Program-made: the position numbers and the translations under genes
Notes under the pieces: model-generated
What the model was told of the DNA's origin: nothing
The model's database searches: none
What the model saw: only the letters and a program-made list of their open reading frames with translations
In this document: in pieces, positions 868 to 20,000 of the stretch
Layout: the number at the start of each line of letters is the position of its first letter
Numbering within the stretch: the stretch's first letter is position 1
Virus record (IMG/VR): IMGVR_UViG_2061766007_000176
Reading direction: 5' to 3' (one strand)
DNA length: 20,000 nucleotides
From: an uncultured virus (IMG/VR IMGVR_UViG_2061766007_000176)
Lineage: Duplodnaviria; Heunggongvirae; Uroviricota; Caudoviricetes

Positions 868-1061
868 ACCTGTACGAAAAAAATTATATGATTTTATTGA
901 GATTCTTCTACATATTCTATGTTAAGAGGATTCTAAAAACTTATTACGTTCTACTCCCCAAGAAGAGCGTGTAAGGATCCGACACGGTTTAGTAATATTT
1001 GCGTAGAAATAATAGGTTGTTATTTCATCTTAACAAATATTATATTTATGAGGTGATACAC

Positions 1062-1685
1062 ATGGGTGAAAACGGTTTAACAGCATCTGATGTTGCCTTA
1101 ATGTCTCGCGATGGCGATGGCTGGGGTAACGGCTGGGGCGGAATGATTTGGCTTTTCGCTATCTTAGCTATGATGGGCGGTGGTTTCGGCTGGAATAATG
1201 GCGGTAATGGTAATGCTATTNNNNNNNNNNNNNNNNNNNNNNNNNNNNNNNNNNNNNNNNCACGTGATATTCTTGCGGCAGTAACGGCCGGAACCGCGCA
1301 AGCGGTAGCAACGACTAATCAAGTATATCATGATGTAGTTGGCTATGTAGGTGATAAGTATGATGAACTTCAGCGTGATATTGCTGGTCTAGCAGTTGGT
1401 CAAGCCAATCTTTTAGCACATTAGAATGAATGTTGCTGTGGCATTTCCCGTCAGTTAATGTAGAATAATTATGATGCTGCTCTTCGTGATGCAGCAACCA
1501 ATGCTAACTTTACGGCACAAATCCAGGGTGTTAAAGATCTAATTGCTCAGGATAAGATGGAAGCAATGCAGAATCGCATTAATCAACTTGAGCTACAGAA
1601 TGCCCTCGCGGGCGTAGTCCGCTATCCGAATGGATGGACTTACAATGCCGGAAATTCTCCTTTCTGTGGAGGATGTAATATGTAA
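1062..1685 (+). CDS. Gly-rich N-terminus, coiled-coil protein with CCC motif (common clostridial-phage hypothetical family); 2 in-frame TAG
   Basis: GAGGTG RBS, ATG 1062; reads through TAG 1422 and 1461 (LAH*NECCCG...) to ...SPFCGGCNM TAA 1683-1685; spans 40-nt N gap. Confidence 0.8.
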
Positions 1686-1715
1686 TCCGAGTGTATTGAG
1701 TACACCAAACATATG

Positions 1716-1746
1716 AGAGGACGTACTTAGTACGTCCTCTTTTTTT
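1716..1746 (+). terminator. Rho-independent terminator
   Basis: AGAGGACGTAC/GTACGTCCTCT 11-bp stem + T run, just after TAA 1685. Confidence 0.85.
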
Positions 1747-1764
1747 ATTATAGGAGGAATGGTT

Positions 1765-2178
1765 ATGTTACAAATTTATTCTAATAATTTAACGGTTGCT
1801 GCCAATACAGTATTTCCTTTTAATAATGTAGTATTAGATAAAGGATGTGCAGAAGTACTTAGCGCGCCAGCAACTATTCAATTAAATTAGCGTGGTGTTT
1901 ACTTAGTAGAAATGGATGGTTTTGCTACTCCAGAAGCAGCGACAGAAGTATCTGTTCAACTAATAGTTAATGGAGTTCCACAACCACAGGCAATTTCTAG
2001 CTTTGTTCCCGCATCAGTAACAGATACTCGTACATTTGGATTTAAAACTTTTGTACGCGTACTTGAAAATAATTGTAATTGTAATTGTTTAACAAGTCCA
2101 ACAACTTTACAATTTATGAATGGCAGCACAGAAATTAGTGATGCCCATATTAATGTAGTTGTAACCAAAATTAGATAA
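1765..2178 (+). CDS. beta-sandwich protein, BclA-C-terminal/C1q-like; 1 in-frame TAG
   Basis: AGGAGG RBS, ATG 1765 MLQIYSNNLTVAANTVFPF..TIQLN*RGVYLVEMDG.. in frame with ORF 1912-2178; TAG 1888. Confidence 0.7.
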
Positions 2179-2181
2179 CAT

Positions 2182-2209
2182 GGGCGGGCGCAAGCCCGCC
2201 TTTCTTTTT
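2182..2209 (+). terminator. Rho-independent terminator-like hairpin
   Basis: GGGCGGGC-GCAA-GCCCGCCT then TTCTTTTT. Confidence 0.75.
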
Positions 2210-2223
2210 AAGGAGGAATTGTT

Positions 2224-2775
2224 ATGACAATTGAAGAGATTTTTAATAAATTAGCTTCTCATATGTGCGAAGGAGTAAGATTTCATGATGAGACGGCAAA
2301 AGCATATGATTATTTAAATTTTGAAGGTTTATATAAGTGTCATATATATCATGCAACAGAAGAAAAACATGGTTTCTTGCTTCTATCTCATTATTATATG
2401 ACTCACTATTTTAAATTATTATAGTTAGAAAATATACCTGATTCTAAATTAATACCTGACACTTGGTATAAATATACAACTTAGGTTGTAGATGGTGGCA
2501 CAAAACGTAATGCCATTAAAGAATTAATGGAAAAATGGATTAAATGGGAACAAGAAACTAAAAAATTATATGAACAAATGCGGCGCGAACTTTATGAATT
2601 AGGTGAAACTGCCGCGGTTTTATATATAGATACATACATCGATGATGTTGATAAGGAACTAGTTGATGCTCAAAAGAAATTAAATCGACTAGAAACTATA
2701 GGATATGATCTCATAGAGATTACAAACTGGTAGGAACATTTATATAAAAAATATACTAAAAAACTTGGGTGGTGA
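2224..2775 (+). CDS. ferritin-like four-helix protein; 3 in-frame TAG
   Basis: AGGAGG RBS; joins ORFs 2224-2424 and 2527-2733 through TAG 2422, 2482, 2731 to TGA 2773-2775; H..EEKH and WEQETKKLYE...DVDKEL helices. Confidence 0.7.
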
Positions 2776-2780
2776 TACCT

Positions 2781-3161
2781 ATGATTAGATTAATACAGCG
2801 TCGCTTGATTATACCGCAGGGAGACACTGGCACTTTTACTATTCCTATTTAGGGTACAATGGGTGAAAATGATAAGGCAATACTATCTATCTATGATCCA
2901 TTAACATAGAAAACTCTACTTAATAAATTGGGTACTGTAGATAGTAATAACAATGTTCTTAATTTCAATTTCATTCCAGAAGATACTCTTCAAATCGAAC
3001 CAAGTAAAAGATACCTTTGGGATATTACAATCTATCGTAACGCATTATATGATTCTGAAAATCAAAAAATAAATCATGCGGATATAGTAGATTCCTATTA
3101 TGCGGCATTTAAGCTTCCGACCTGCGAAATAAGGGCGGTGACTTCAGATGTTCAAAAGTAA
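2781..3161 (+). CDS. putative baseplate/virion beta-rich protein; 2 in-frame TAG
   Basis: GGTGA RBS, ATG 2781 MIRLIQRRLIIPQGDTGTFTIPI*G; TAG 2850, 2907; in frame with ORF 2928-3161; QGDT and YLWDI motifs resemble BppU-like domains. Confidence 0.65.
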
Positions 3162-3627
3162 TAGAGAGCGCACACGCGACTTATTATTAGAATACGATAT
3201 TCGTATTATGCCGCCTCGTCCGCGCGCAGCAGGACTGGCGATGGTGTATCCTTGGTTAAACAGTAATACTGCTGACCAAGGCTGGGTAGATATTCCACCA
3301 ATTCCAGATACTCCAGAATTCCAAGTGGTATATCCTTGGGAATCTATTGGACTTAGTATTCTCGGAGATTAGATTTATATGCTGGCTGCGAACAGTGGTT
3401 ATACTGGAACTCGTGAAGATTTCCATCGTTATTTTGGCACATATCTTAATGATAATAAGTGGGAAATTCTATTTGAAAGTTATAACAATTTCCCAGAAAT
3501 TGGTGCAATAGATAAATTATATTTTGATTTAGATGAAAATATATTATATTATTGGGATGAAACTGAATATAAACCCGTTAATGCTATGCTAATTACTAAT
3601 ACCATTTTAAATGGAGGTGACGCTTAA
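3148..3627 (+). CDS. putative virion/tail protein; 1 in-frame TAG
   Basis: ORFs 3148-3372 and 3379-3627 are in one frame joined by TAG 3370; GYTGTREDF and FPEIGAIDKLYFD motifs. Confidence 0.7.
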
Positions 3628-4337
3628 TGGCAACTAATTCTGTAAAAGTTACATTATAGATTCGTCACGATGAAGCGGCAGATTGGGTAACAAGAAATCC
3701 AATTTTAGCATAGGGCGAATATGGTTTGGAAACTAATACTTTTCTTATTAAAGTAGGTGATGGAGTTCGTGATTGGACACATTTACCCTATCTAAATAAA
3801 TTAGATAGTACATATTTCAAATGGAATACTGATGGTACAATTACTTTTAGCGATGAATTTGCTCAAACCATTAGTAATATTATAATAAATGCTGGTGGGT
3901 CTACAAAGATTGTTATATCAGATGATCCTGTAGAAGAAACCGATCCAATTAATTTACGCTATTTATAGGAAGCAATATAGACAGCCATTCTTAACGCGCA
4001 TCATCTTAAACGATAGGTTGTAGAATATTTACCATCTGCCGCAAGCGCTGATGTAGATACCCTATATATGGTTCTCGCGCAATCCGGAGATCATTATGAA
4101 GAATATATGGCTATTAATGGTGTTTGGGATATGGTAGGTTCTACAGGTGATGGAGGCTCTGGTATTTTTCAACTAGAGGTTGCAACGGAAGCTCGCTTAG
4201 GCGGAGTTCGAGCGTCTCAATTAGCTGATCAAATTAATGTAAATGCTGAAGGTATTATGACATTAAATTAGGTTGCAACAACTAAATTATACGTTCCAAC
4301 AGGAGATACTTTTATTATCTATGGCGGCAGTGCTTAA
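3627..4337 (+). CDS. tail-fibre-type protein with Mtd/hyaluronidase-like N-terminal domain; multiple in-frame TAG
   Basis: GGAGG RBS, TAATG overlap; VTL*IRHDEAADW..NPILA*GEYGLETNT..KVGDG matches the QxR..W..NP.LAQGE.G.ETDT..KIGDG motif; ends TAA 4335-4337. Confidence 0.8.
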
Positions 4338-4351
4338 AGGAGGTGAGCTAA

Positions 4352-6175
4352 ATGGCGGAACATATGATTGAATCTAGAATTTTGTTACGCTATGACACCT
4401 TGGATCATTGGATGAACAGTACTGTTATTCTAAAGCAGGGAGAAGCAGCTATTGCCGCGTCCACTTTTGATTATACTATTGAAGATACAAATCATCGACC
4501 AGCACATACTCCACCTGCTATTGGTATTAAAATTGGTGATGGATATCATTATTTTTCAGAATTGCCTTGGGTTCAAGCAGTTGCTGGTGATGTATATAAT
4601 TGGGCTAAACAACAAACAAAACCGCAATATACCGCAAATGAAATTTCTGGACTAATATCACTTATATAGTAGTGTATATAGGAAGCAGGCGGCGGAAGCG
4701 GTTCTGGCTCTGGTCCAGTTACTGTTGAGGCTCGTGCCTATCGTTTAACATAGGGAACTGGTAGTAATACTAATAAATATTACTTATAGTCTAAGGGTGC
4801 GAATGATGAAGATTGGGTTACAGATGAATTACATTATGTAGATTTAACCCAGTTAGCTAATGTTTTAGAATGGCTAGGGCCTGGTATCGATGATTATTGG
4901 AATATTACTGGTTTTACTGTAGATAAATTAAATGCGCGCTTATAGCAATTAAATTACACAGATAATACAACTAATAATACAGTGGTTACTGCTGTTAATC
5001 AAATAAATGGCCAAATTAGCGTTTCTCGTGGATCAGTTAATACTAATATGATTGATGGCGTTTTAGATGTTGAACATGGAGGCACCGGTAAAAGTTCATT
5101 AGAATATGATTCTATATTAGTAGGTAATGGAACCGGCGCGATACAAACTCGACCTATTGAAACTATTTTAATCAATGATAATAATTTTGCTACTAATCGT
5201 GCTATTATTAATTATATTGAAAACGCTACAGCTGGTCTTACCGGTGCTATGCACTTCATAGGTGAAGCTACTGTAGAAATAACGAATGGTTCCCCCGTCA
5301 ATCCTCGCATTGAGGGATATAATTTTTCTTTAGCGGAATTAGGAGATGTTATTTTATTTAATTCAGCTGAATATGTTTGGACCGGAGTAAATTGGCGCTT
5401 ACTAGGTGATGAAGGTAGTTATGCGATTAAAGGCTCAATACGTAATGTTGATATTGCTGATGATGCTAATATTTCTCCTTCTAAAATTGCTAATTTAGTT
5501 ACAACTTTAGATTCTAAAGTAGATAAACAAGATGGAAAATCATTAAGTACAAATGATTTTACCAACGATTATAAAAATAAACTTGATAATATTGAAGATG
5601 AAGCCTAGCGTAATATTATTGAGCACGTATATGTAAATGGCACTGAAGTACTTCCATCTACTATTGATGGAAATCCTAATTCTTTAGGATTACGTGTGAG
5701 TGCCTTAACGCCAGAAGAAGAAGAAAAAATCGCTGGAATTGAGGCCCACGCGCAAGTAAATAAAATTGAACATATATTTCTAAATGAAAATGAATTAAAT
5801 ATAGGTACAGTAAAAAATTTAGCTAAATCTGTAAATATTTAGTTAAATGAATTTACTAATGCTGAAAAAGAAAAACTAGCTGGAATAGAAAATGGCGCTC
5901 AAGTTAATAAAATTGAGACTATTAATATTAATGGTACAGATTATACTCCTAATAATAATAAAGAAATTTAGATTACTATTGACTAGGCCGCTTTAAATCT
6001 AAATGTTCTTGAAGGCGCGAGATATCCCTCTGGAAATAATCAATATACTGATGTAGATATTACAAATAAGAAATTAGAATTAAGTAAAGTTGCGGCAACA
6101 GGCAATATTAATGATCTAGTACAACCTTCTGGCTATGTTATATTTAATTGTGGTAGTAGCACAGAAGTTATTTAA
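4352..6175 (+). CDS. tail fibre protein (607 aa) with Mtd-like N-terminus and three K(L/I)xxIExxAQxN repeats; many in-frame TAG
   Basis: AGGAGGTG RBS; no TAA/TGA in frame until 6173-6175; contains ORFs 4352-4669 and 4982-5608; KVDKQDGKSLSTNDFT motif. Confidence 0.85.
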
Positions 6176-6194
6176 ATAATAAGGAGGAATGAAT

Positions 6195-6701
6195 ATGCCA
6201 CAATATAATACACGCATATAGTTAAAAAGCGATACTGAGGCGAATTGGAATAAAGTTCCAAATTTCGTTCCTCTTGATGGGGAATTTATTATTTATTCAG
6301 TCGATAATGAGCATTCTTATTGTCGTTTAAAAGTTGGCGATGGCACAACAACAATATCAAATTTATCTTTTATAGATTCGGGTACTATTAATGGTGAAGA
6401 GGTAGAAATAGTTAAAAAAGTAACTTTTAGTCAATTTCCATAGCCTGGATCATCAGATAAATTATACATAGATTTATCAACTAATCGTATTTATCATTAT
6501 GATACCTATAATGGATATGCACAACTATCAAATTTTTCTTTTGAAGTTACAAAAACAGCGACATCTATTATTAATAGATGGAGTGCCGGTACTGTTACTA
6601 CGGCGTCGGTTAATGATAATATATTAAGTATAAAAAATGGCTTAATACCAGAATTATCTTATCAAAATATATAGGTAGTAAGTGATATACAAAGGGAGTG
6701 A
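6195..6701 (+). CDS. tail-associated protein with Mtd-like N-terminal domain; 3 in-frame TAG (absent from ORF track)
   Basis: AAGGAGG RBS; MPQYNTRI*LKSDTEANW...PLDGEFIIY...LKVGDG; TGA 6699-6701. Confidence 0.8.
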
Positions 6702-6706
6702 GTTAA

Positions 6707-7672
6707 ATGGGAACATATGTGGGTAAATTACAAATAGGCAATGATAGCAATAATTTAATTGCTTTTGGTGATATTTTATATGGTACTTGTACTACCGCAG
6801 CATCAACCGCGACAAAAGAGGTTTCAATAGCAAATTTAGATAGAGTACTATAGGGTGTTCAAATACGTGTTAAATTTACCGCAGGTAATAGCGCAACATC
6901 GAGCGTAAAATTAACTTTCCCTGGAACCTCTATTACTGAACACTTTGTATAGGGTGATTGCGTGTGCTCAGCCGATAGCGTGATTAGCTTTACTTATGAT
7001 TATGATGGAACTAATGGATATTGGCGCGTAACCAGTGGTGGTATTAATCAGGCAATTAGAGATTATATAACTGGGGTAACTAGTGGAGCTATTAATGCTG
7101 TAGATGCTTTAGTATTTAAAGGAACTTTAGGCAATGGTGGTAATATTACTGCTGTACCAGATGGTACTTCTGGGCATACTTATAAAATTGGTGAAACCTA
7201 TAGAATTATTACTCCAGGAACTTATGCTGGACAGGCATGTGAAAGTGGTGATTTATTAATTGCTATTGCTAATTCAATAGAAAACTAGACTCAAGTTAAT
7301 AATGATCACTGGACTGTGGCATAGACTAATATAGATGGCGCAGTTATAGGCCCAGCTGCGGATAATAATTTAGGAAATCATGTTGCTATTTTTAATGGCA
7401 CTACAGGTAAATTAATTAAAGATAGTGGTTTTACTATTGGTAAGTCAGTACCATCCGATGCTGTTTTTACAGATCATGAATATCATTTAGATACCACCAA
7501 TGTATCGCCATATACCGCTAGTGAAGCAATGACATCTGATTCTGATGGTAATGGAACTGTCCTAGTTACTGTAGAAGCTGGTATATTAAAACTAGCAAAT
7601 GGTATAAAATTTACAACTAGTACAGCAGTGGGAACCGCTGTATTAGATGCTGGAGCAACCCATTCAAGTTAA
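6707..7672 (+). CDS. tail fibre protein; 4 in-frame TAG
   Basis: GGGAG RBS; YGTCTTAASTATKEV, ALVFKGTLG, WTVA*TNIDGAVIGP, VPSDAVFTD; TAA 7670-7672. Confidence 0.85.
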
Positions 7673-7689
7673 TTAAGGAGGTGAGCTAA

Positions 7690-9813
7690 ATGGCTGCTAC
7701 AATAGGAAATTTTATTGATCGAATCTAGCTGGGTACCGATGATACCCATCAAATAGCCATTGGCTCTTCAGCTTATGCCGTATGCGAAACTATCGCATCA
7801 ACCCAAGTAAAAGAAATTACAATTCCAGGTTTTACTTTAAACACTGGTACCACAATTCATGTTAAATTTATATATGAAAACACTGCTACAGATCCATAGT
7901 TAAAAATTGGAACTGGCACACCACAATATATTGTACAATATGGTATTGAAAAAGTTGGAACAAATAGTGAAACTGCCGGATGGTAGGCGGGTGCAGTTTT
8001 AACTTTAACATATGATGGTACAAATTGGGTAAGGGATTAGGGTTATAATACTAATACAAGTTATACACATCCAACCACTTCTGGTAATAAACATATTCCA
8101 TCTGGTGGATCGGCCGGAAAAATACTTGGATGGGCTAGTGATGGTACAGCTGAATGGATTGATTATTCAGGTAATGATGGAAATACTTATAAACCTAAAC
8201 AGACAGCTTTTACTGATAGTACCGGTACTCCCGATGGTAATAATACCGCTACAGCTTTTATTTACTCATTCTCATAGAATGAAAATGGTGTCGTCCAAGA
8301 TATAATAACTCGCGCATTACCAGTAGCATCAACTACCGCTCCAGGTATTATTCAAATAGGAACTGAGTCAACGCATGCATTAGCCGGTGACACCGTTGTA
8401 ACTAATGTATCTTTTACTAATATAACTTCCTCCAATGATGAGTATCCCGTATTATTTAAAAATACTACTGGTACCACTAATAGTGATGGTGGCGTTTGTT
8501 TTATTTCTGCAAACGAGAAAAATGTAACTATTAATGGTAGTACCGGCAAATTAAGTGCAGAAGCAGGGTTTATTGGAAATGTTACTGGTGATTTAACTGG
8601 AACCGCGTCCTATGCAACTGCGGATTCATAGGGAAATACTATTCATACCACCTATGCTCCAATAAATAGCCCTGAGTTTACAGGTACACCATTAATTACA
8701 ACGACCCCAACCGATGGTGATAGTAGTCATAAAATTGCTGACACCGCTTTTGTAATGAATACATTAAAATATGTTGATGCAATGTTATTTAAAGGAACTA
8801 TTGGTGATATAGATGATAATCCTACTGTAACTTCTTTACCAATAATACATGAAGCAGGCTGGACATATCGTGTTGTCACTGCCGCTACATATAGTATTAC
8901 AGATTCTACTGGTCGATATTGTGAAGAAGGCACTCTAATTATTTGTACAACCGATGGAACAGCAAGTAATCCTGCTGATTGGACAGCTATAGAAACTAAT
9001 GAAGACGGCGCGGTTATAGGACCTACTAGTAGCACTAATAATGATATTGTAACATTTTCTGCAACCTCTGGTAGAGTTATACAAGATAGTGGAAAGACAT
9101 TTTCTACAGCTACTCCAACTACCTCATCAACTGATAATTAGATTCCAACATCTAAAGCTGTATGGGCGGCGATTAATGGTTTAGATACTATTATAAGTGG
9201 TTGTGGAGCAGAAAAAACTCTTGCAACATTAACTGAATCTGATGGTATAATTAGTGCAACATTTTAGAATGTTGCTATTTCACTGACCGCCGCAGCAGAG
9301 AGTAGTTATTGGAATTTTACAGGTTCTAACAATAATGAAACAAATAAAGTAAAATATTCATTAGCACCATATAGTTCTAAATAGAATGGAGCTAATTTTT
9401 ATACTGGGACAACAGCTCCAGATGGCACTGACCGTTTAAATTATAATGGTTATTTTTATGCAACAAATTTATACTCAAGTAAAGTATATCCAGGAACTAA
9501 TACCAGTTATGGTAATGCATATACTCCAATTTATTGGAATGATGGCGTTCCTGCTGAAGTTACCATAATAAAAAAATATACATTTAGTTTTGCTGATTCG
9601 GGCGCGACAACTACAGTTGTTACGCCAGATAATATTAATATTGGAACTCATATAGTAACAGAAATTGTAGTTGATACCGGTATATCACATCTAAATGGAT
9701 CAATTAGCTGGAATGTGCCAACTACTGGTGATAATGCAAATAAAATTGTATTAACTACTATAGCTACATCAGGTACTGTAAGTGGTTATATTTTAGTTTC
9801 TACAGGATCTTAA
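7690..9813 (+). CDS. long tail fibre / receptor-binding protein (707 aa); many in-frame TAG
   Basis: AGGAGGTG RBS; single frame with only TAG interruptions; YTHPTTSGNKHIPSGG, APINSPEFTGTP, AMLFKGTIG, DWTAIETNEDGAVIGP; TAA 9811-9813. Confidence 0.85.
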
Positions 9814-9817
9814 ATAC

Positions 9818-9847
9818 TTGACAACTTATTATAAAATATGTTATAAT
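9818..9847 (+). promoter_or_regulatory. sigma-A-type promoter (extended -10) upstream of holin
   Basis: TTGACA 9818-9823, 18-bp spacer, TGnTATAAT ending 9847. Confidence 0.7.
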
Positions 9848-9871
9848 AAAGAAAAAAAGGAGGTAATTCCT

Positions 9872-10207
9872 ATGGATGCCACTCAAATTTTACTTGGTAT
9901 TATTTTAATTTTAGGTGGTATAGCGACGCTAATCGTCTGGCCTTACATTAAAACTCATGTTTCTGCTGAATAGCTTTCTATATTAGCAGGAATTGCATAG
10001 ACTGTGGTGTATGCAGCTGAAAAGATCTTCGGCGCAAAAATGGGTGAAGATAAATTAGCCTATGCTTTAAACCTAGCAAAGAAACTACTTGAAAAGAAAG
10101 GTGTAACTTTCGACGAAGAAGTAATCCGTGCGGCAATCGAGGCACAAGTACAAGAATTAGATTTAAATCAGCAAGTCCTTGAAGAACCCGAGGAAACGGA
10201 AGAATGA
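9872..10207 (+). CDS. phage holin, LL-H family-like; 2 in-frame TAG
   Basis: AGGAGG RBS; N-terminal TM helix ILLGIILILGGIATLIVWPYIK; VYAAEKIFG..GEDKLAYA..IRAAIEAQV; TAG 9971, 9998. Confidence 0.8.
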
Positions 10208-11571: not shown

Positions 11572-11640
11572 ATAAGTAGAATATGAGGGTAAGGAACCTC
11601 ATTTCTAAATAAAATTTCATAACATAGGGAGGTTATGATT

Positions 11641-11985
11641 ATGGCTATTCGTGTTTATTCGGATAAAACCAAACAGTTCTATAACACAGTGGAGGAAGCA
11701 AACCGCGCTGAGTTTGAACTAAAAGAGAAAGAGAATCTTGAAAAGATTCAGAAAGAGCGCGAGCTTGCACTCGCAAAAGAAAAGAAGGAAAAGGCGCTAG
11801 CAGAACGTAAGGCCGCTGCTGAAAAGGTAGAAGCCGCACGTAAAGCATTCAATGAAGCGAGAAAAGCATATCATGCTGAACTTGAAACCTTCTGTAAGAA
11901 GTACGGCACTTATCATTATACCACTGATGGTAAAGATGATGTTCCATCTCTATTCGATCTCTTTGATAACATTTTCAAGTTCTAA
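11641..11985 (+). CDS. coiled-coil hypothetical protein (no TAG)
   Basis: GGGAGG RBS; E/K/A-rich heptads. Confidence 0.8.
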   Translation: MAIRVYSDKTKQFYNTVEEANRAEFELKEKENLEKIQKERELALAKEKKEKALAERKAAAEKVEAARKAFNEARKAYHAELETFCKKYGTYHYTTDGKDDVPSLFDLFDNIFKF

Positions 11986-12014: not shown

Positions 12015-12107
12015 AGCCCCTTAGTTCAACGGTAGAACACCGGTCTCTAAAACCGTTATATCCCTCTGAAGGAGGTAGTCAGGGTTCGAATCCCTGAGGG
12101 GCCGCCA
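12015..12107 (+). tRNA. amber suppressor tRNA (anticodon CTA), Trp-like body, 23-nt variable region, encoded CCA
   Basis: Acceptor AGCCCCT/AGGGGCC+G+CCA; D arm GTTC/GAAC; loop CT-CTA-AA (anticodon 12047-12049); T arm CAGGG-TTCGAAT-CCCTG. Confidence 0.85.
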
Positions 12108-12995: not shown

Positions 12996-13404
12996 GTTTT
13001 CCCAAGAGTACCGAGTGTATGAGGGACGTTTGGACCCACCTCTCCAATCGTTAATATACAGAAGGATGGCGCCAAGGAGAGAAGGTATATCTANNNNNNN
13101 NNNNNNNNNNNNNNNNNNNNNNNNNNNNNNNNNNNNNNNNNNNNNNNNNNNNNNNNNNNNNNNNNNNNNNNNNNNNNNNNNNNNNNNNNNNNNNNNNNNN
13201 NNNNNNNNNNNNNNNNNNNNNNNNNNNNNNNNNNNNNNNNNNNNNNNNNNNNNNNNNNNNNNNNNNNNNNNNNNNNNNNNNNNNNNNNNNNNNNNNNNNN
13301 NNNNNNNNNNNNNNNNNNNNNNNNNNNNNNNNNNNNNNNNNNNNNNNNNNNNNNNNNNNNNNNNNNNNNNNNNNNNNNNNNNTAGTAAATTCACAGTGTA
13401 TCAT

Positions 13405-13821
13405 ATGGAATATACAACAAATCAAAAGGGTTTAATTACTGAAATGGAAGTAGCATTGTATTTAATTAAATTAGGATATAATGTATCACAACCATTAAAT
13501 GCAGATAGTAAATATGATTTTATTGTGGATACTGGTAAACAACTGTTACGAATACAGGTAAAAACTTCACATTTAAATAAAAATGAAACTGGTTTTGAAT
13601 TTAAATGTCGTTCTGTAACAGTAAATAGTAACAAAGTTAATTGTCATTATTATAGTTCTGATGATGTAGATTATTTTGCGACTTATTGGAATGGAGAAGT
13701 TTATTTAGTACCTGTAAATCAATGTTCTTCGGTTAAGAATTTATATTTTGAAAAACACGCTCGTGATGGAGTATGTTGGTGCGAAGATTATAAAGCAAGC
13801 GAGGTGTTAAAAGCACTGTGA
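13405..13821 (+). CDS. PD-(D/E)XK homing endonuclease, group I intron-associated (I-Ssp6803I-like) family
   Basis: KGLITE..GYNVSQP..SKYDFIVD..LLRIQVKT..Y.SDDVDYFATY..VYLVPV; true start ATG 13405 after the N gap. Confidence 0.85.
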   Translation: MEYTTNQKGLITEMEVALYLIKLGYNVSQPLNADSKYDFIVDTGKQLLRIQVKTSHLNKNETGFEFKCRSVTVNSNKVNCHYYSSDDVDYFATYWNGEVYLVPVNQCSSVKNLYFEKHARDGVCWCEDYKASEVLKAL

Positions 13822-14388: not shown

Positions 14389-16095
14389 ATGAGAGCAGCA
14401 GTTTATGCGGGCACGCGCAATATATATGCCGATATGATTCCATCTATGAAATCTCTATTAATGTATTCTAATGTGGATAAAATTTACTTCTTAATAGAAG
14501 ATGATGAATTTCCATATGAACTTCCTCCAGAAGTAGAATGTATTAATGTAAGTAATCAAAAATGGTTTGATCCCGAAGGGCCTAATTTCGTTTCTAAATG
14601 GTCTTATATGATTCTTTTGCGTGCGGCCCTTACAAAATTGTTTCCAGATTTAGACAGAATTTTATCATTAGATTGTGATACTATAGTAAGAAATAACATT
14701 TCCGAACTATGGGATTTGCCGCTAGATGATTATTATTTTGCTGGTGTATATGAACCAGAAAAATCTACGGAAACATTTAGATATATTAATGCTGGCGTAA
14801 TGATGTTTAATCTAAAGAAAATTCGTGAAGATCATAAAGATGATGAATATATTTATGATTTAAACAATTGTTATAGACCATTTCCAGAGCAAGAATGTTT
14901 CAGTGCCTTGTCACAAGGCAAGATATTAGAATTATCAGGAGAATATAATTTATCAACGAGTACCATAACATCTACAAATGAGAAGATACTTCATTTTGCC
15001 GCAAATAAAAATTGGAGACTTCTAAAATTAGTAAATGAATTTAGAATGATGCCATTAGATTTCGCGCGCAATCAAACCAACCAAATCGCTTTAGATATTA
15101 TTATTCCTACTTATGTTAAGGTAAATAATTTGAAAAATACGCTTGAATCTATTGAGTGGAACAATAAATATCCAATTCGAGTCACAGTAATTGATGATGC
15201 TTCTGGTAAAGATTATTCGGCGCTACAAGCACAATATCCACAAGTACAGTGGCTTCAATTAAAACAAAATAGCGGGCCTGGCGTAGCAAGACAATATGGT
15301 AATGAGCATACTAATTATCGTTATATTACTTATCTAGATAGCGGTGATATCTTTAAACCTGGAGATATAAATAAAATCTTTGAAGGCATAGAACAAAATA
15401 CTATTGGATACTTCTATATTTGGAGATTCTATGATGGCGATACTAAAGCACTATCAAGACTAGATGAGGAAAAGACTTGCGGTAAAGTATATCGGCGCGA
15501 ATTCATTGAACGATATAACATTAGATGGTCTTCTGGTAAAGCATCATATGCTTGCGAAGATTATGGTTTTGTAAGAACTTGTAATGTATTTTTAAGTTAT
15601 CTTCAGACTATAGACGGAGCAAAACGTGTATATATGTTTAATGACCTAATAACCTGTCTAGTACCAGATAATAATTCAATCACACGCGAAAATAAATTTG
15701 AATTTGTATTTAATCAAGCAGTTGAAGGACTAGTATTAAATAACTATCATATATACAAACAGTGTAGAGATAGTAAAATTCCTATTAGATATATTATACG
15801 TGAATTAAACTATATGATTGTGCGTTTATATTGGTTCTTCCTTATAACAGTTCACGAGCGTCCAGAATTCCGTGAAATAAATTGGGTTCGCATTAAGGAT
15901 TTCTATGATAAGCTATATTCTAAATATGAATTAGAGGCGTCTAAAACATTGGCAGAGCCCTATTATAAATGTAATACACAACTTATAATGCCCAAAATGC
16001 GAGTATGGAAATCTCCCATAAGAATCAACATTGGTAGATTTTTAGCTGAATTGAAGACTAATAAGGAAATGCCTGGGAGGTACAAACTTGATTGA
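14389..16095 (+). CDS. bifunctional glycosyltransferase (GT8 N-terminal + GT2 C-terminal)
   Basis: DRILSLDCDTIV..YINAGVMMFNL..EQE..ILHFA (GT8); IIIPTY..VIDDASG..NSGPGVARQYG..YLDSGD (GT2); GGAGG RBS. Confidence 0.9.
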   Translation: MRAAVYAGTRNIYADMIPSMKSLLMYSNVDKIYFLIEDDEFPYELPPEVECINVSNQKWFDPEGPNFVSKWSYMILLRAALTKLFPDLDRILSLDCDTIVRNNISELWDLPLDDYYFAGVYEPEKSTETFRYINAGVMMFNLKKIREDHKDDEYIYDLNNCYRPFPEQECFSALSQGKILELSGEYNLSTSTITSTNEKILHFAANKNWRLLKLVNEFRMMPLDFARNQTNQIALDIIIPTYVKVNNLKNTLESIEWNNKYPIRVTVIDDASGKDYSALQAQYPQVQWLQLKQNSGPGVARQYGNEHTNYRYITYLDSGDIFKPGDINKIFEGIEQNTIGYFYIWRFYDGDTKALSRLDEEKTCGKVYRREFIERYNIRWSSGKASYACEDYGFVRTCNVFLSYLQTIDGAKRVYMFNDLITCLVPDNNSITRENKFEFVFNQAVEGLVLNNYHIYKQCRDSKIPIRYIIRELNYMIVRLYWFFLITVHERPEFREINWVRIKDFYDKLYSKYELEASKTLAEPYYKCNTQLIMPKMRVWKSPIRINIGRFLAELKTNKEMPGRYKLD

Positions 16096-17020
16096 TTTAA
16101 TTATTCCCTATTATAATAATCCAGAAGGATTAGCGCGAACCCTTGAATCAATTAATAAAGAAGTATTTCATATAACAGTAGTAGATGATAATTCATTAAT
16201 TTATATGCCTTATAATGTAGACGTAGATCAAGTACTACGCTATAATGCTAATAGAGGGCCAGGGTTTGCGCGCCAATTTGGTTTGGAAAGAACGCATGAA
16301 CCTTATGTAATGTTTCTTGATACGGGCGATGTATTTATATCTAAAGAAGTACAATATAGAATTGAGTATGAACTTGTAAATACTAAGGCTGTATTGGCAA
16401 GTTATTTATACTATCATTATGATGAACTAAGTAAACATACAGATAATCGTTTACATGGTAAAATCTATCAACGCGCATTTTTAGAAGAATATGGAATTTC
16501 ATTTCCATTGGAATCAAGTTACTTAAATGAAGATGTAGGCTTTAATAGAGCGTGTAAACTGATTATTGAAAATAACAAGTTATTACAGACACGTACAGAT
16601 TTGCCTGTAATTCGACAAACAAAAGATGAAAATTCTTTAACACAAAAAGATAATCAAGTTGTACTATATCGAGATCAAACTCGCGCGCTATCGCTTGTTT
16701 CTATTCATACAATAGATACACTTATAAAAAATAACATAAATCCGCAAGAAGAAATTAATCATATTGCGATGTCACTATATTACTGGTTTATAAGAACTGC
16801 GGCCGAAAGAATTGAATTTCTACCACAAGCATGGGATGGCGCAAAAATCTTCTATCAGAAGTATAAAAAAGAAATTCAACCAAATCAATTAGTTAATGGA
16901 AATGCGTATTTAAAAAATTGTTTAACCTATCGGCGCAAATTACATTTTCCTATTAATGTTCTTAAATTCGCACATGAAATTTTAGTAGAAGAAAATTTAC
17001 CATCTTATTATTTGACATAA
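16088..17020 (+). CDS. GT2 family glycosyltransferase (paralog of the upstream GT2 domain)
   Basis: TTG start with GGGAGG RBS; LIIPYYN..VVDDNS..NRGPGFARQFG..FLDTGD..HGKIYQR..NEDVGFNR. Confidence 0.9.
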   Translation: MIDLIIPYYNNPEGLARTLESINKEVFHITVVDDNSLIYMPYNVDVDQVLRYNANRGPGFARQFGLERTHEPYVMFLDTGDVFISKEVQYRIEYELVNTKAVLASYLYYHYDELSKHTDNRLHGKIYQRAFLEEYGISFPLESSYLNEDVGFNRACKLIIENNKLLQTRTDLPVIRQTKDENSLTQKDNQVVLYRDQTRALSLVSIHTIDTLIKNNINPQEEINHIAMSLYYWFIRTAAERIEFLPQAWDGAKIFYQKYKKEIQPNQLVNGNAYLKNCLTYRRKLHFPINVLKFAHEILVEENLPSYYLT

Positions 17021-17040
17021 TATAAAATTTCTGATATAAT
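17012..17040 (+). promoter_or_regulatory. sigma-A-type promoter (extended -10) for tRNA cluster
   Basis: TTGACA-17-TATAAT with TG. Confidence 0.85.
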
Positions 17041-17075
17041 ATTTATGTAAGGAAGGGGAAGAAACCCCTTCAGAT

Positions 17076-17148
17076 GGCTCTGTAGCGTAGCGGTTATCGC
17101 GTCGGCTTGTCACGCCGAAGATCACGAGTTCAATTCTCGTCAGAGTCG
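17076..17148 (+). tRNA. trnD: tRNA-Asp(GTC)
   Basis: GGCTCTG/CAGAGTC, TCGGC-TTGTCAC-GCCGA, T arm ACGAG-TTCAATT-CTCGT. Confidence 0.92.
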
Positions 17149-17151
17149 CTC

Positions 17152-17288
17152 ACCGTTTTGTACGATGACGGTATATAAATAATTCGGCAAACCGTTAGCA
17201 CGGATTTAGCACTTCAACTACCACCGGCACCTTATGGTGATATGTGGCATTAGCGGTAAACGGTATATAAAGAAGCGAAGTAAAGTGC
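17152..17288 (+). ncRNA. two tandem H-type pseudoknot units (ACCG..CGGT-ATATAAA), CptI-like
   Basis: ACCGT/ACGGT+ATATAAA (17152-17179); ACCGTT/AACGGT+ATATAAA (17191-17271) with GCACTT/AAGTGC second stem. Confidence 0.55.
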
Positions 17289-17297
17289 GTTTTATAT

Positions 17298-17370
17298 CGC
17301 AGGTAAGACAAGCGGCTAAGTCAGGTGGCTCATAACCATCGTTTGACGGGTTCGACTCCCGTACCTGCTA
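17298..17370 (+). tRNA. trnM: tRNA-Met(CAT) (1:72 mismatch; initiator/elongator/Ile2 status unclear)
   Basis: CGCAGGT/ACCTGCT, GGTGG-CTCATAA-CCATC, ACGGG-TTCGACT-CCCGT. Confidence 0.85.
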
Positions 17371-17374
17371 CTAT

Positions 17375-17447
17375 GGCTCCTTAGCTCAGTTGGTAGAGCA
17401 AGCGGCTGTTAACCGCTGGGTCAAAGGTTCGAGTCCTTTAGGAGCCG
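17375..17447 (+). tRNA. trnN: tRNA-Asn(GTT)
   Basis: Canonical cloverleaf, loop CT-GTT-AA. Confidence 0.95.
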
Positions 17448-17630
17448 CTTGGGAACTTGTCCCTATTAAGAACAAGTGGGCGCATCGCAGGTTCGATCTG
17501 CGTAGTCGAGAGAAAAAGTTATATATTCTATACAAGTTCGAGTCTTGTTTAGCACGGCGCAATAGATATATATAATCTGCAGTAATTAAGCTACTCTTGC
17601 CAGGCTTGGATGCATACAAGTCTGTAATAT

Positions 17631-17702
17631 GCTCCGTGGGACAGTCGGTTAAGTCATCGGCCCTTCAAGCCGGAGTGCCGAGTTCAACTCTCGGACGGAG
17701 TA
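17631..17702 (+). tRNA. trnE: tRNA-Glu(TTC), atypical G8 and C33
   Basis: GCTCCGT/ACGGAGT, TCGGC-CCTTCAA-GCCGG, CCGAG-TTCAACT-CTCGG. Confidence 0.8.
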
Positions 17703-17803
17703 CTTAGTAGTTGTCATAAAATCCCAATATGCCATCGCTATAGCTATGAAGCCCCACTTCATACAAACAACAACTACTTCCACGGGAGCATAAGCTCCCA
17801 TAT

Positions 17804-17875
17804 GCCCTATGGGGCAGGCGGTCAAGCCATCAGCCTCTCAAGCTGAAGTGCCGAGTTCGATTCTCGGATAGGGTA
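17804..17875 (+). tRNA. trnE: tRNA-Glu(CTC), atypical G8
   Basis: GCCCTAT/ATAGGGT, TCAGC-CTCTCAA-GCTGA, CCGAG-TTCGATT-CTCGG. Confidence 0.85.
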
Positions 17876-17878
17876 CAA

Positions 17879-17976
17879 ACTGCTCCCATCTCCGGCAGTA
17901 TAAACAACGGATTTAACCACCGCTATCATTGTTTCACACTTTCATGACGCGGTATATAAAACGGCATTGAAAGTGT
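17879..17976 (+). ncRNA. two tandem H-type pseudoknot units, CptI-like
   Basis: ACTGC/GCAGT+ATAAA with TCCG/CGGA; ACCGC/GCGGT+ATATAAAA with ACACTTTCA/TGAAAGTGT. Confidence 0.65.
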
Positions 17977-18002
17977 TATTACTCTATTGTGAGGTATAAA
18001 AT

Positions 18003-18953
18003 ATGGCAACAACGACAAGAAAATTTACCGCTACAGACCTAAAGAATATGTAGGGTATGGATCTTTCATGGAAGATCTAGACAACAATGGCAAAGATAAT
18101 GGAATACTATCACCACTTTGATGGCAAAGTGTATGTAGCATTTTCAGGCGGAAAGGATAGTACCGTCTTATTACACATTATCAGACAAATCTATCCAGAT
18201 GTTCCAGCAATTTTCATTGATACTGGACTTGAGTATCCCGAAGTTAAAGAGTTTGTAAAATCTTGGGATAATGTAGAAATTCGTAGACCAACTAAGACAT
18301 TCCGTCAAGTAATTGAACTATTTGGTTATCCATTAGTCAGTAAGAAAATTGCCGGATATGTCGCGACCGCAAAGCGTAATCCTAACTCTGCTCGCGCCAA
18401 ATACCTAAGTGGTGAATATGATAGTAAGATATTTGGTTTTGGTGAAGGTAAATGGTGGTACTTAGTAGATGCGCCATTTAAGATTAGTGACTATTGTTGC
18501 GATGTAATGAAAAAGCAGCCTGGACATCATTATCAGAAAGAGTCCGGTAGACATCCAATTATTGGTACTCTCGCGGAAGAATCCATTATGAGAAGAAATG
18601 AATGGCTTCGTAGCGGATGTAATGCTTTTGATGGTAAAGAGCCTATTAGCAAACCATTATCTTTCTGGACGGAACAAGATATTCTTCAGTATTTGAAGGA
18701 ATACAATGTTCCATACTGCCCGCTCTATGGCGACATTGTAGCGGATAAAAAAGGTAAGCTAAGTACAACTGGTATTCATCGTACAGGATGTATCTTTTGC
18801 GGCTTTGGTTGCCATATGGAAAAAGAACCCAATCGCTTCCAGCAACTTAAATGTTCTCATCCAAAGATCTGGGAATACTGTATGAAACCTTGGGATGAAG
18901 GTGGATTGGGTATGAAAGAAGTTTTAGATTATGTTCATGTAAAAACTGAGTAA
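18003..18953 (+). CDS. PAPS-reductase-family (PP-loop, Fe-S Cys motifs) protein; 2 N-terminal in-frame TAG
   Basis: GAGG RBS, ATG 18003, DLKNM*GMDLSWKI*TT (TAG 18051, 18078); VAFSGGKDS, DTGLEYPE, CCDVMKK, RTGCIFC. Confidence 0.88.
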
Positions 18954-18960
18954 TAAATAT

Positions 18961-18989
18961 TTGACATAAAATAAAATTTCTGCTATAAT
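18961..18989 (+). promoter_or_regulatory. sigma-A-type promoter (extended -10) driving the non-coding region
   Basis: TTGACA-17-TATAAT with TG. Confidence 0.85.
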
Positions 18990-19082
18990 ATATATGTAAA
19001 GAGGAAATAAATCATATAGGGGGTATGAACCGATATGATTCCGTTGCCTTTCTTTTGAATAAGATGAAAGGTTAAAGCAATC

Positions 19083-19136
19083 AGGCGCTAACAGCAAACT
19101 TTTTCAATGCTAAACATATTAAAAGATCGTGCGCCT
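19083..19136 (+). ncRNA. stem-CAGCAA-loop element copy 4 (skipping-rope-like)
   Basis: AGGCGC/GCGCCT stem, CAGCAA 19092-19097. Confidence 0.6.
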
Positions 19137-19171
19137 AGTATTCCCCTCTCTACTGGCTAGTGGGAATGGTG

Positions 19172-19727
19172 CTGGGTTAAGCGGAAATGAATCGCACCTT
19201 AAACACGGTATGTCCGCATACAAGCGCAACCCGCCACGGCATTTTAAATCTATTGCAATAGACCGTGGCACGCCTCTGTAAACGTCTCATTGAGGGTATA
19301 AGACAGACGTTAAACCGTGGAAATACCCCAACGCGCAAAATCATGCTGCGCGAAATAAATGAAGTGAAGCACAGGTGATCGCCACACGGAAAGTGTCTGA
19401 AAAACAAAAATGGGCGCTCCAAGGACAGGAGCGAGATCAAAAGGCTCTTGCTGGTCAGTGTGGCATGCAGAAAGCAAGTAAAACACGGGGTCGCGCACGT
19501 GCAGGGGCAGAAACGCACGTAAATAACAGACTGCCTGGGTCGTGTTTAATGAGCACAACCTTCATACGTTCGGTGCCGAGATCGTAATGGTCTCGAATAC
19601 TAGTTGCGCTGAAATGATATGGTGACCAGCAAGTCGAAAAACTGCCGTTTGGGCTGCGTGAGATGCGCCGGGTCCACCGTGCGAATGCACAAGCGTTTAC
19701 CATAGCGCTGGGTTTCGCTTCACCCAG
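19172..19727 (+). ncRNA. candidate large (~560 nt) pseudoknotted ncRNA
   Basis: Closing helix 19172-19186/19713-19727 and several 7-11 bp long-range helices, some crossing; no credible ORF. Confidence 0.65.
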
Positions 19728-19881
19728 AGGAAGTTCCTCTAAAGAAGATTATATGGTAAACCATCGGTAGACTGCTCCGAAAGGGACAGTATAAAAGATC
19801 TTCTGGCTACTCGAAGAGTAGTAGCATCCTACAATAGACCTGCCAGCGCCTCTACTGACGAGTATGCGTACCTTGGGGGGC

Positions 19882-19918
19882 ACCGCAAAGAGCACGCGGT
19901 ATATAAAGAGAATGCTCT
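19882..19918 (+). ncRNA. H-type pseudoknot unit, CptI-like
   Basis: ACCGC/GCGGT, ATATAAA, AGAGCA/TGCTCT. Confidence 0.65.
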
Positions 19919-19951
19919 CGGCCGTAGCCTGATGCATAAGGCACGGCACTT

Positions 19952-20000
19952 GCCCGAGTGGTGGAATAGGCAGACACAACAGACTTATTAATTTGAGCAC
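19952..20000 (+). tRNA. trnL: 5' exon of tRNA-Leu(TAA) followed by the start of a probable group I intron (truncated)
   Basis: GCCCGAG-TG-GTGGAATAGGCAGACAC-A-ACAGA-CTT then ATTAATTTGAGCAC; CTTA/TGAG forms a P1-like helix with U34-G wobble. Confidence 0.65.

Follow-up and report, generated by a model that had tools for sequence, protein, structure and literature searches.

A catalogued 141-nt RNA motif, cow-rumen-3, within a far larger pseudoknotted RNA preceding a phage tRNA-Leu gene: a tentative case for a modular array

What kind of RNA lies in front of the tRNA-Leu gene near the end of a 20,000-nucleotide (nt) stretch of DNA from an uncultured virus of the Caudoviricetes (IMG/VR record IMGVR_UViG_2061766007_000176; this whole stretch is hereafter called the window), and is it one closed structure or a chain of separate ones? 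A first-pass annotation had placed a large, multiply pseudoknotted non-coding RNA at 19172-19727, closed by long-range helices, and had proposed that it was either a divergent member of a class such as ROOL or GOLLD or the first of a new one. Our analysis bears out that this phage tRNA island contains a large non-coding RNA with multiple pseudoknots: at least five of them have compensatory support across the whole RNA, it has a promoter of its own, and no open reading frame (ORF) is conserved. The closed architecture is not borne out. We tentatively favour, with a probability of roughly 45%, a modular array of independent structured units rather than one closed fold.

We scanned 18900-20000 against Rfam, as the first-pass annotation had recommended, and obtained a match to cow-rumen-3 (RF03083) only, even at E≤10. 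This match, at 19537-19678 on the + strand, scored 145.2 bits (E 3.9e-34; gathering score 86.7) and spanned model positions 1-141 of 141, which is only about a quarter of the candidate. The ROOL, GOLLD, RNase P, tmRNA and group I/II intron models gave no match in 18900-20000 at the same threshold, and neither ROOL nor GOLLD matched any of 12 relatives at E≤1. The failure of both models in the window and these relatives agrees with the earlier remark that the RNA could not be assigned to either class. The choice between a divergent member and a new class was only partly right, however: the RNA is not assignable to ROOL or GOLLD, but 141 nt of it were already in Rfam. Within 19083-19951 there was likewise no Rfam or ARAGORN call for RNase P, tmRNA or introns, a group I-type intron beginning only at 19987.

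About 35 relatives were collected, every one of them from viral or metagenome contigs. A motif derived from the Rfam consensus yielded 6 family loci among 95 matches in IMG/VR and 32 among 59 in metagenome contigs; removal of duplicates left 31 distinct sequences including the window, and other patterns added L192, L194, L197, L205, L206, L210 and L211. No GenBank phage record gave a blastn match to 19100-19950, and the 22 motif matches in representative prokaryote genomes included no family member. In public data, the stretch from the window itself occurs in runs that carry the label bovine gut metagenome.

From 11 window-type sequences we built a covariance model of 19534-19761 with 48 pairs (R1), with which all members were then realigned. 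R1 matches 33 of the 35 sources at 52-221 bits. In the resulting alignment, 89.4% of the cells are paired, compared with 77.5±0.6 in shuffles, and double changes occur in 30 of the 48 pairs, compared with 18.1±1.8 in shuffles (0/500 as high) and 5-11 in slid controls. Covariation among homologues, on which the first-pass annotation had staked its proposal, is thus present. The first part of this core consists of hairpins H1 (19537-61), H2 (19567-616), H3 (19624-35) and H4 (19650-76), the same four covarying hairpins as in cow-rumen-3. Pairs with double changes number 6 of 9 in helix 1, 7 of 8 in helix 2, 2 of 3 in helix 4 and 2 of 4 in helix 6, helix 5 being nearly invariant. The internal loop of H2, AAUACUAGUU, contains the almost invariant 6-nt palindrome ACUAGU. 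We also observed that DUF3800-XI (RF02975) repeatedly matches H4 weakly through its first 28-32 positions, in the window (19650-19680) and in L099, L143, L131, L194, L108 and L147, at 16-32 bits and under the gathering score of 37.8; the two may share a sub-motif.

Rfam treats cow-rumen-3 as a stand-alone 141-nt small RNA, whereas here it forms the middle of what would be a ~955-nt transcript, with covarying structure continuing on both sides. Outside the model, and conserved on its 3' side here, are 80 doubly knotted nt. This second part of the core (19679-19760, + strand) comprises local stems and two pseudoknots. The stems are H5 (19679-82/87-90), S1 (19692-95/19706-09), H6 (19710-13/22-25) and H7 (19727-31/35-39); in 4 of the 11 sequences, MAFFT and the covariance model alike misplace H5 and S1 by one or two columns. 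H6 varies as GGGU/ACCC, GAGU/ACUC, GGAG/CUCC and GAAG/CUUC. The S1 loop pairs at 19696-704 with 19752-60, in the forms CCAUA/UAUGG, CCAUG/CAUGG, CUCGUA/UACGAG and CCCGUA/UACGGG. In view of the misplaced columns, this pseudoknot was judged with our own script; single-sequence shuffle controls were weak (3/1000 to 236/1000), and the case for it is made by these compensatory changes between types. The pairing of the H6 loop (19718-21 with 19744-47) is less general, being absent in L132 and L147.

The limits 19172-19727 (~560 nt) given by the first-pass annotation proved too narrow, since conserved structure runs from 19083 at the latest, where stem P0 begins, to 19951; with the predicted start site, the length is ~955 nt. 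Conserved 3' of 19727 are the rest of the core, an element that we call X, a pseudoknot (19882-19918) and a hairpin (19921-47). Two further features had been described correctly. The stretch is richer in G+C (~0.49-0.50) than the flanking genes (0.30-0.40), and a consensus sigma-70-type promoter lies upstream on the + strand at 18961-18989 (TTGACA, a 17-nt spacer with a TG extension, TATAAT; 12/12 matches), from which transcription would start at ~18997. An equivalent promoter was found by eye upstream of L069, L060, L099, L147, L192 and L194; in L065, L108, L110 and L126 the RNA is instead preceded by upstream tRNAs and has no promoter of its own.

Directly downstream, at 19952-20000 on the + strand, is a tRNA-Leu(UAA) gene, with its 5' exon at 19952-19986 and the start of a group I-type intron at 19987, cut by the window end. 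In 20 of 30 relatives, ARAGORN placed tRNA-Leu(UAA) 3' of the RNA and in the same orientation, and an intron-split gene follows the RNA in 3 more (L065, L069, L147) as in the window; six of the 30 contigs stop short of where the gene could be scored, and L143 has a different arrangement. Since the tRNA is adjacent in the relatives and nothing resembling a terminator was detected on the + strand from the promoter to the tRNA, we infer that the two are co-transcribed, the primary transcript extending from ~18997 to 19951 (~955 nt, + strand) and on into the tRNA. A rough promoter-to-tRNA estimate for the family is ~720-1400 nt. The tRNA-Leu gene is split between U34 and A35, which we take to be the classic cyanobacterial and plastid intron site; the 3' exon of L069 lies ~300 nt further on (L069 1870-2258), and a 51.4-bit Intron_gpI match was found downstream of the split gene of L147. 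By eye in the alignment, the gene of L141 is apparently also split. The word GACCAGUNGYUCUCAAUGUCNUAAAAC occurs just 3' of the tRNA-Leu in L069 (2259-2290), L122, L138, L192 and L194, a position beyond the window end.

The core is flanked by smaller units, all on the + strand. Stem P0 (19083-19136; AGGCGC 19083-88 with GCGCCU 19131-36), evaluated with our own script, has the word CAGCAAAC (19092-19099) 3' of its 5' strand and an A+U-rich loop; relatives carry GGCAC/GUGCC, CGGCGCG/CGCGCCG, GACGCUA/UAGCGUC, GAUACC/GGUAUC or GGUAACAC/GUGUUACC. We dropped a long-range pairing of the 5' word CCUAGUA with the H2 loop UACUAG, because the compensatory changes of P0 explain the variation of that word. 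Module d (19181-19217) is a hairpin of GCGGA (19181-85) and UCCGC (19213-17) with UUAAACACGG in its loop; double changes affect 5 of 6 pairs over seven instances, and MAFFT aligned the window and L069 with a shift of one column. In module e (19224-19273), GCG (19224-26) and CGC (19271-73) enclose the hairpin GCCACGG (19233-39)/CCGUGGC (19263-69). This hairpin had been listed in the first-pass annotation and is strongly supported: over seven distinct instances, 100% of the cells are paired and 4 of 7 hairpin pairs show double changes. Module f (19282-19328) is a pseudoknot in which ACGUCU (19282-87)/AGACGU (19305-10) is interleaved with GGGUAU (19294-99)/AUACCC (19323-28), its second stem having double changes in 4 of 6 pairs among the closest relatives. 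Two hairpins follow: CGCGCA (19332-37)/UGCGCG (19347-52), at 19332-19352, with 77.8% of the cells paired and one double-change pair, and CGCUCC (19415-20)/GGAGCG (19428-33), at 19415-19433, which is invariant in the five relatives having it, so that variation is uninformative.

Module c (19447-19498) is a further pseudoknot. Its stem CUUGC (19447-51)/GCAAG (19474-78) carries an apical GUGUG (19458-62) that pairs with CGCAC (19494-98) past the invariant tail UAAAACACGGGG; double changes occur in 2 of 5 stem pairs and, over 12 instances, in 4 of 5 pairs of the second stem; for the window, where this stem is shifted by one column, the register was assigned by eye. Next come the hairpin ACGUGC (19497-502)/GCACGU (19515-20) and a pairing of its loop GGCAG (19506-10) with CUGCC (19531-35), together 19497-19535. 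The first-pass annotation had proposed both; they are kept in four relatives (L122, L150, L144, L132) and show almost no variation, and L069 has at the equivalent place, by eye, the different words CGAGG/CCUCG. On the 3' side of the core, 19763-19830 is a window-specific insertion with two hairpins recognised by eye, one of them GAAA-capped, which is absent from L069, L122 and other close relatives. Element X (19837-19884) consists of CGCCUCU, a loop and GCGUACC, and has 12 family instances. The 3' pseudoknot (19882-19918) combines ACCGC (19882-86)/GCGGU (19896-900) with AGAGCA (19889-94)/UGCUCU (19913-18) through the linker AUAUAAAGAGAA; 100% of its cells are paired, stem 2 has double changes in 2 of 6 pairs (GAGCA/UGCUC to GGACA/UGUCC), and up to ~4 pseudoknots of this type occur per RNA. 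The terminal hairpin (19921-19947), read from the sequence as GCCG-UA-GCCU/AGGC-A-CGGC, stands directly 5' of the tRNA, and a hairpin of like shape precedes the tRNA in relatives. Modules c, d and e and the 3' pseudoknot each pass the covariation test on their own alignments.

Every pairing with compensatory support spans at most 70 nt, which brings us to the long-range helices. The complementary words listed in the first-pass annotation are all present where it had placed them. However, in an alignment of the six closest relatives, the closed architecture had 70.2% of its cells paired compared with 68.4±0.9 in shuffles (15/500 as high), and the full structure reached a covariation score of 0.091 compared with 0.084 (144/500 as high). 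The local modules, in this same alignment, had 89.9% of their cells paired compared with 84.6% and a covariation score of 0.170 compared with 0.066 (0/500 in both cases). Of the eight earlier pairings, four are in competition with local pairings that covary, and a fifth overlaps with such pairings. The proposed terminal helix fails in this way: module d has the AAGCGGAA arm as its 5' strand, H6 has the ACCCAG arm as its 3' strand, and L069 carries an uncompensated change in the 3' arm of the helix. The first arm of AGCGCAAC/GTTGCGCT falls within module e, a unit that L069, L122 and L150 lack and that other relatives carry at different places, and the second arm is paired within H2. For AAACACG/CGTGTTT, the second arm is the covarying 5' strand of H1; the H1 of L147 reads CGUAGCU and the tail is unchanged. 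GCCACAC/GTGTGGC competes with the covarying second stem of module c. The complementarity CTTGCTGGTCA/TGACCAGCAAG has a mixed record. It is conserved, module c UGCUGG(UCA) matching H3 (UGA)CCAGUA in all 14 members that have module c (9-13 base pairs in the seven whose H3 is of the GAC/GUC form, 6-7 in the remaining seven), but it shows no compensation and both arms overlap covarying local stems. We regard it as a tertiary or alternative contact at best.

We read the RNA as an array of independent modules because its units change position and copy number and recur in other phage tRNA islands. Relative to the core, module e takes seven distinct offsets that range from -418 to +250; members have 0-2 copies of module c and up to ~4 AUAUAAA-linker pseudoknots. 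Module c also stands next to tRNAs in three loci without a core (L196, L198, L203). These lone copies, CUUGCUGGUCA...GAAAGCAAGUAAAACACGGGG with the covarying tail, lie at 975-1037 in L196, 982-1043 (- strand) in L198 and 976-1037 in L203, where they precede other tRNA genes by 15-30 nt; the phages concerned have no cow-rumen-3. A further sibling, L209, has P0, module e and the downstream tRNA, and lacks the core (no R1 match). Two tandem abiF motifs occupy the core's place (1045-1081 and 1094-1130; 37.9 and 29.8 bits, gathering score 37), and this pair could be a phage-borne antitoxin mimic.

According to the array reading, a non-coding transcript of ~955 nt would start at its own consensus promoter and run straight into tRNA-Leu(UAA), and cleavage of the tRNA precursor by RNase P would set the 3' end of the RNA. 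The chain of units would be P0, modules d and e, pseudoknots f and c, a 225-nt core made of cow-rumen-3 and its doubly knotted extension, X, the 3' pseudoknot and the terminal hairpin. By analogy, such an array would most likely serve as a decoy that binds and titrates host RNA-binding proteins during infection, for example abortive-infection toxins held in check by small antitoxin RNAs. We suggest this role because the abiF-motif RNA RCd22 is described as neutralising the AbiF toxin by direct binding (PMC12373285), because L209 carries abiF motifs, and because the shuffling of modules resembles that of an arms race. The abiF motif (RF03085) is, like the modules here, a small structured unit arranged in tandem, with bona fide copies only in L209, in the slot between P0 and the tRNA. 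Element X resembles those copies by eye, the words CGCCUCU and GCGNACC being common to both; we ruled it out as an abiF member, as the model does not match it, and regard the likeness as resemblance and not as membership. RCd22 differs in its setting, as it lies beside its toxin gene in a prophage, whereas the window RNA lies in a tRNA operon with no abiF gene nearby.

Bovine RNA libraries bear on whether such RNAs are made. In four of four libraries, from four studies, contigs contained pieces of family members (88, 37, 22 and 19 contigs). Summed depth in bins within the RNA reached 2444, 80, 81 and 129, compared with 6, 0, 0 and 0 at the end of the neighbouring gene (18900-36), which hints at abundance, these depths being contig-based and summed over relatives. 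Uncovered parts, ends and joins of the RNA-run contigs follow module boundaries between relatives and are uninformative on transcript ends.

Several observations count against the array and its decoy role, the summed nature of these depths being one. Nearly all members keep P0, core, 3' pseudoknot, hairpin and tRNA-Leu in this order, an arrangement no less compatible with one functional RNA of variable periphery than with an array. The match between the module c and H3 loops may be a long-range contact, and the two nested pseudoknots of the core seem more intricate than simple protein binding would call for. The 37-position abiF model gave no match in the window at E≤10, including a search on 86 bases at element X, and no toxin partner is known for the window RNA.

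The same constant order would be expected if this were a single ornate RNA of large size that formed a third class next to GOLLD and ROOL, folded as a unit, assembled with its own copies through loop-loop contacts and acted as an RNA-only particle in infected cells. We consider this unlikely, though a serious contender. Recent work has shown that GOLLD and ROOL assemble into cages free of protein. Cages of this kind are homo-oligomers held by loop-loop contacts, and the only hint of such assembly here is the H2 palindrome ACUAGU, a type of word that might pair between two copies. The conserved complementarity of module c and H3 is compatible with a unit fold, and the setting is shared: phage, tRNA island, own promoter and a 3' tRNA (PMC12286853, PMC5737381). 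The window shares with ROOL a phage setting near tRNA genes, with 8 tRNAs and with tail-fibre and holin genes. GOLLD (RF01998) is described as a phage RNA of >800 nt from tRNA islands, with many pseudoknots, a conserved 3' part, a variable 5' part and no known function (PMC12286853). The window RNA has a similar 3'-conserved, 5'-variable layout, an analogy of layout and not of shared sequence or structure; the GOLLD model does not match it, and we found no evidence that it self-assembles or has a globally closed fold. ROOL (RF03087) is described as a large, pseudoknotted RNA near tRNAs, from rumen and phage sources (PMC5737381, PMC12286853). It averages 581 nt and has six multistem junctions, whereas the supported structure here consists of local hairpins and H-type pseudoknots, and its model is also unmatched. 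A unit fold is further disfavoured by the lack of any long-range pairing with compensatory support among those analysed, by the failure of the earlier closing helices, by the modules that stand alone elsewhere, by L209, which lacks the core, and by an ordinary folding energy (z = -1.83 for the single sequence 19129-19948, 20 shuffles).

The tight link to the tRNA allows a further explanation, namely that the RNA is an elaborate leader of the tRNA-Leu precursor acting only in cis, with processing signals, protection from exonucleases or aids to folding and timing. This would be comparable to the small stable RNAs cut from the tRNA cluster of phage T4. Species 1 and 2 of that cluster are structured RNAs co-transcribed with phage tRNAs and released by tRNA-processing enzymes; they are single units of 120-140 nt with no known function, and we liken them to the window RNA by description only. 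The direct join to tRNA-Leu(UAA) in most relatives, the lone module c 15-30 nt before other tRNAs in L196 and L198, and the four members that follow upstream tRNAs without their own promoter are what a leader would predict. Against it stand a length of ~950 nt with at least five pseudoknots, far above known tRNA leaders, and a strong conservation of loops (UUAAUGA, AAUACUAGUU, AAAAACUNCCGUUUGG). Most phage tRNA-Leu genes, moreover, have no such RNA, and only 2 of 20 related PAPS-reductase loci have it. A role confined to cis therefore seems improbable to us.

Finally, the region holds several ORFs of 50-113 amino acids (aa) on both strands under translation table 11. We compared seven window ORFs with 30 relatives by tblastn and obtained fragmentary hits with stops or frame changes, the sole full-length hit being that of an 82-aa minus-strand ORF (19455-19703) in L069, the nearest relative by DNA and nearly identical; no conserved frame with synonymous-site variation was found among them. 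That the region is protein-coding, or that its pairings are chance complementarities, is a reading to which we give next to no weight, these ORFs and the unremarkable folding energy notwithstanding, as no ORF is kept, covariation appears on several independent alignments and the Rfam match scores 145 bits.

The remainder of the window is phage DNA from bovine gut or rumen in which TAG is a sense codon in the late genes. Genes at 999-10207, encoding tail-fibre-like proteins and a holin among others, tile the + strand without gaps once TAG is read as sense; each tail-fibre or holin gene has 1-10 in-frame TAGs, and these frames are open only on that reading. A 93-nt tRNA with anticodon CUA (12015-12107), labelled Pyl by ARAGORN, has a length that suggests a long variable arm. 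ARAGORN found eight tRNAs in the window and none inside the candidate RNA. Recoding is not needed for the genes at 14389-18953 near the candidate, which include two glycosyltransferase genes (14389-17020) and a gene for a PAPS-reductase-like protein (18087-18953). We fetched 34 loci with related PAPS-reductase genes and scanned 20: neither ROOL nor GOLLD lay downstream in these 20, two had cow-rumen-3, one tmRNA and one drum RNA. The tmRNA (62 bits, L213 4576-4873) and the drum RNA (52.7 bits, L218 3035-3131) both lie in tRNA islands of phages with a related PAPS-reductase gene. Elsewhere in the window, an 80.5-bit Rfam match to cow-rumen-4 (11576-11638) stands directly upstream of ORF 11635-11985 and overlaps its start; its 3' hairpin contains the GGAGG and ATG of that ORF, and it looks like a cis-acting leader. 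Runs of N at ~13100-13400 and within 999-1685, with X in the translations and a G+C of 0.097 in bin 13201-13500, are masked or unresolved stretches.

What was known before is the 141-nt core, which reportedly comes from a 224-motif survey (Weinberg et al., 2017; PMC5737381) whose main text does not name the motif. The ~955-nt transcript, the extra pseudoknots, the module library and the tRNA-Leu link are not in Rfam 15. Our literature search, which did not cover the supplement of that survey, found no paper discussing cow-rumen-3 or RF03083 and none describing any of these four features. A catalogued 141-nt motif of unknown function thus turns out to be the centre of a far larger RNA. On a broader and doubtful view, rumen phages may draw on a common stock of small pseudoknotted modules (c, d, e, f, AUAUAAA-linker knots, abiF-like units and the cow-rumen-3 core) to build combinatorial tRNA-operon arrays as anti-defence weapons, or the core may nucleate a third RNA-only assembly beside ROOL and GOLLD. 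If the anti-defence reading is true, every module would imitate an antitoxin or guide RNA of the host and sequester the abortive-infection toxin that it matches, and shuffling and changes in copy number would be the record of an arms race. The sibling with proven antitoxin-type motifs in the core's place makes the decoy array a testable idea for part of the class, and the ~35 natural variants offer a defined set for the study of this RNA family.

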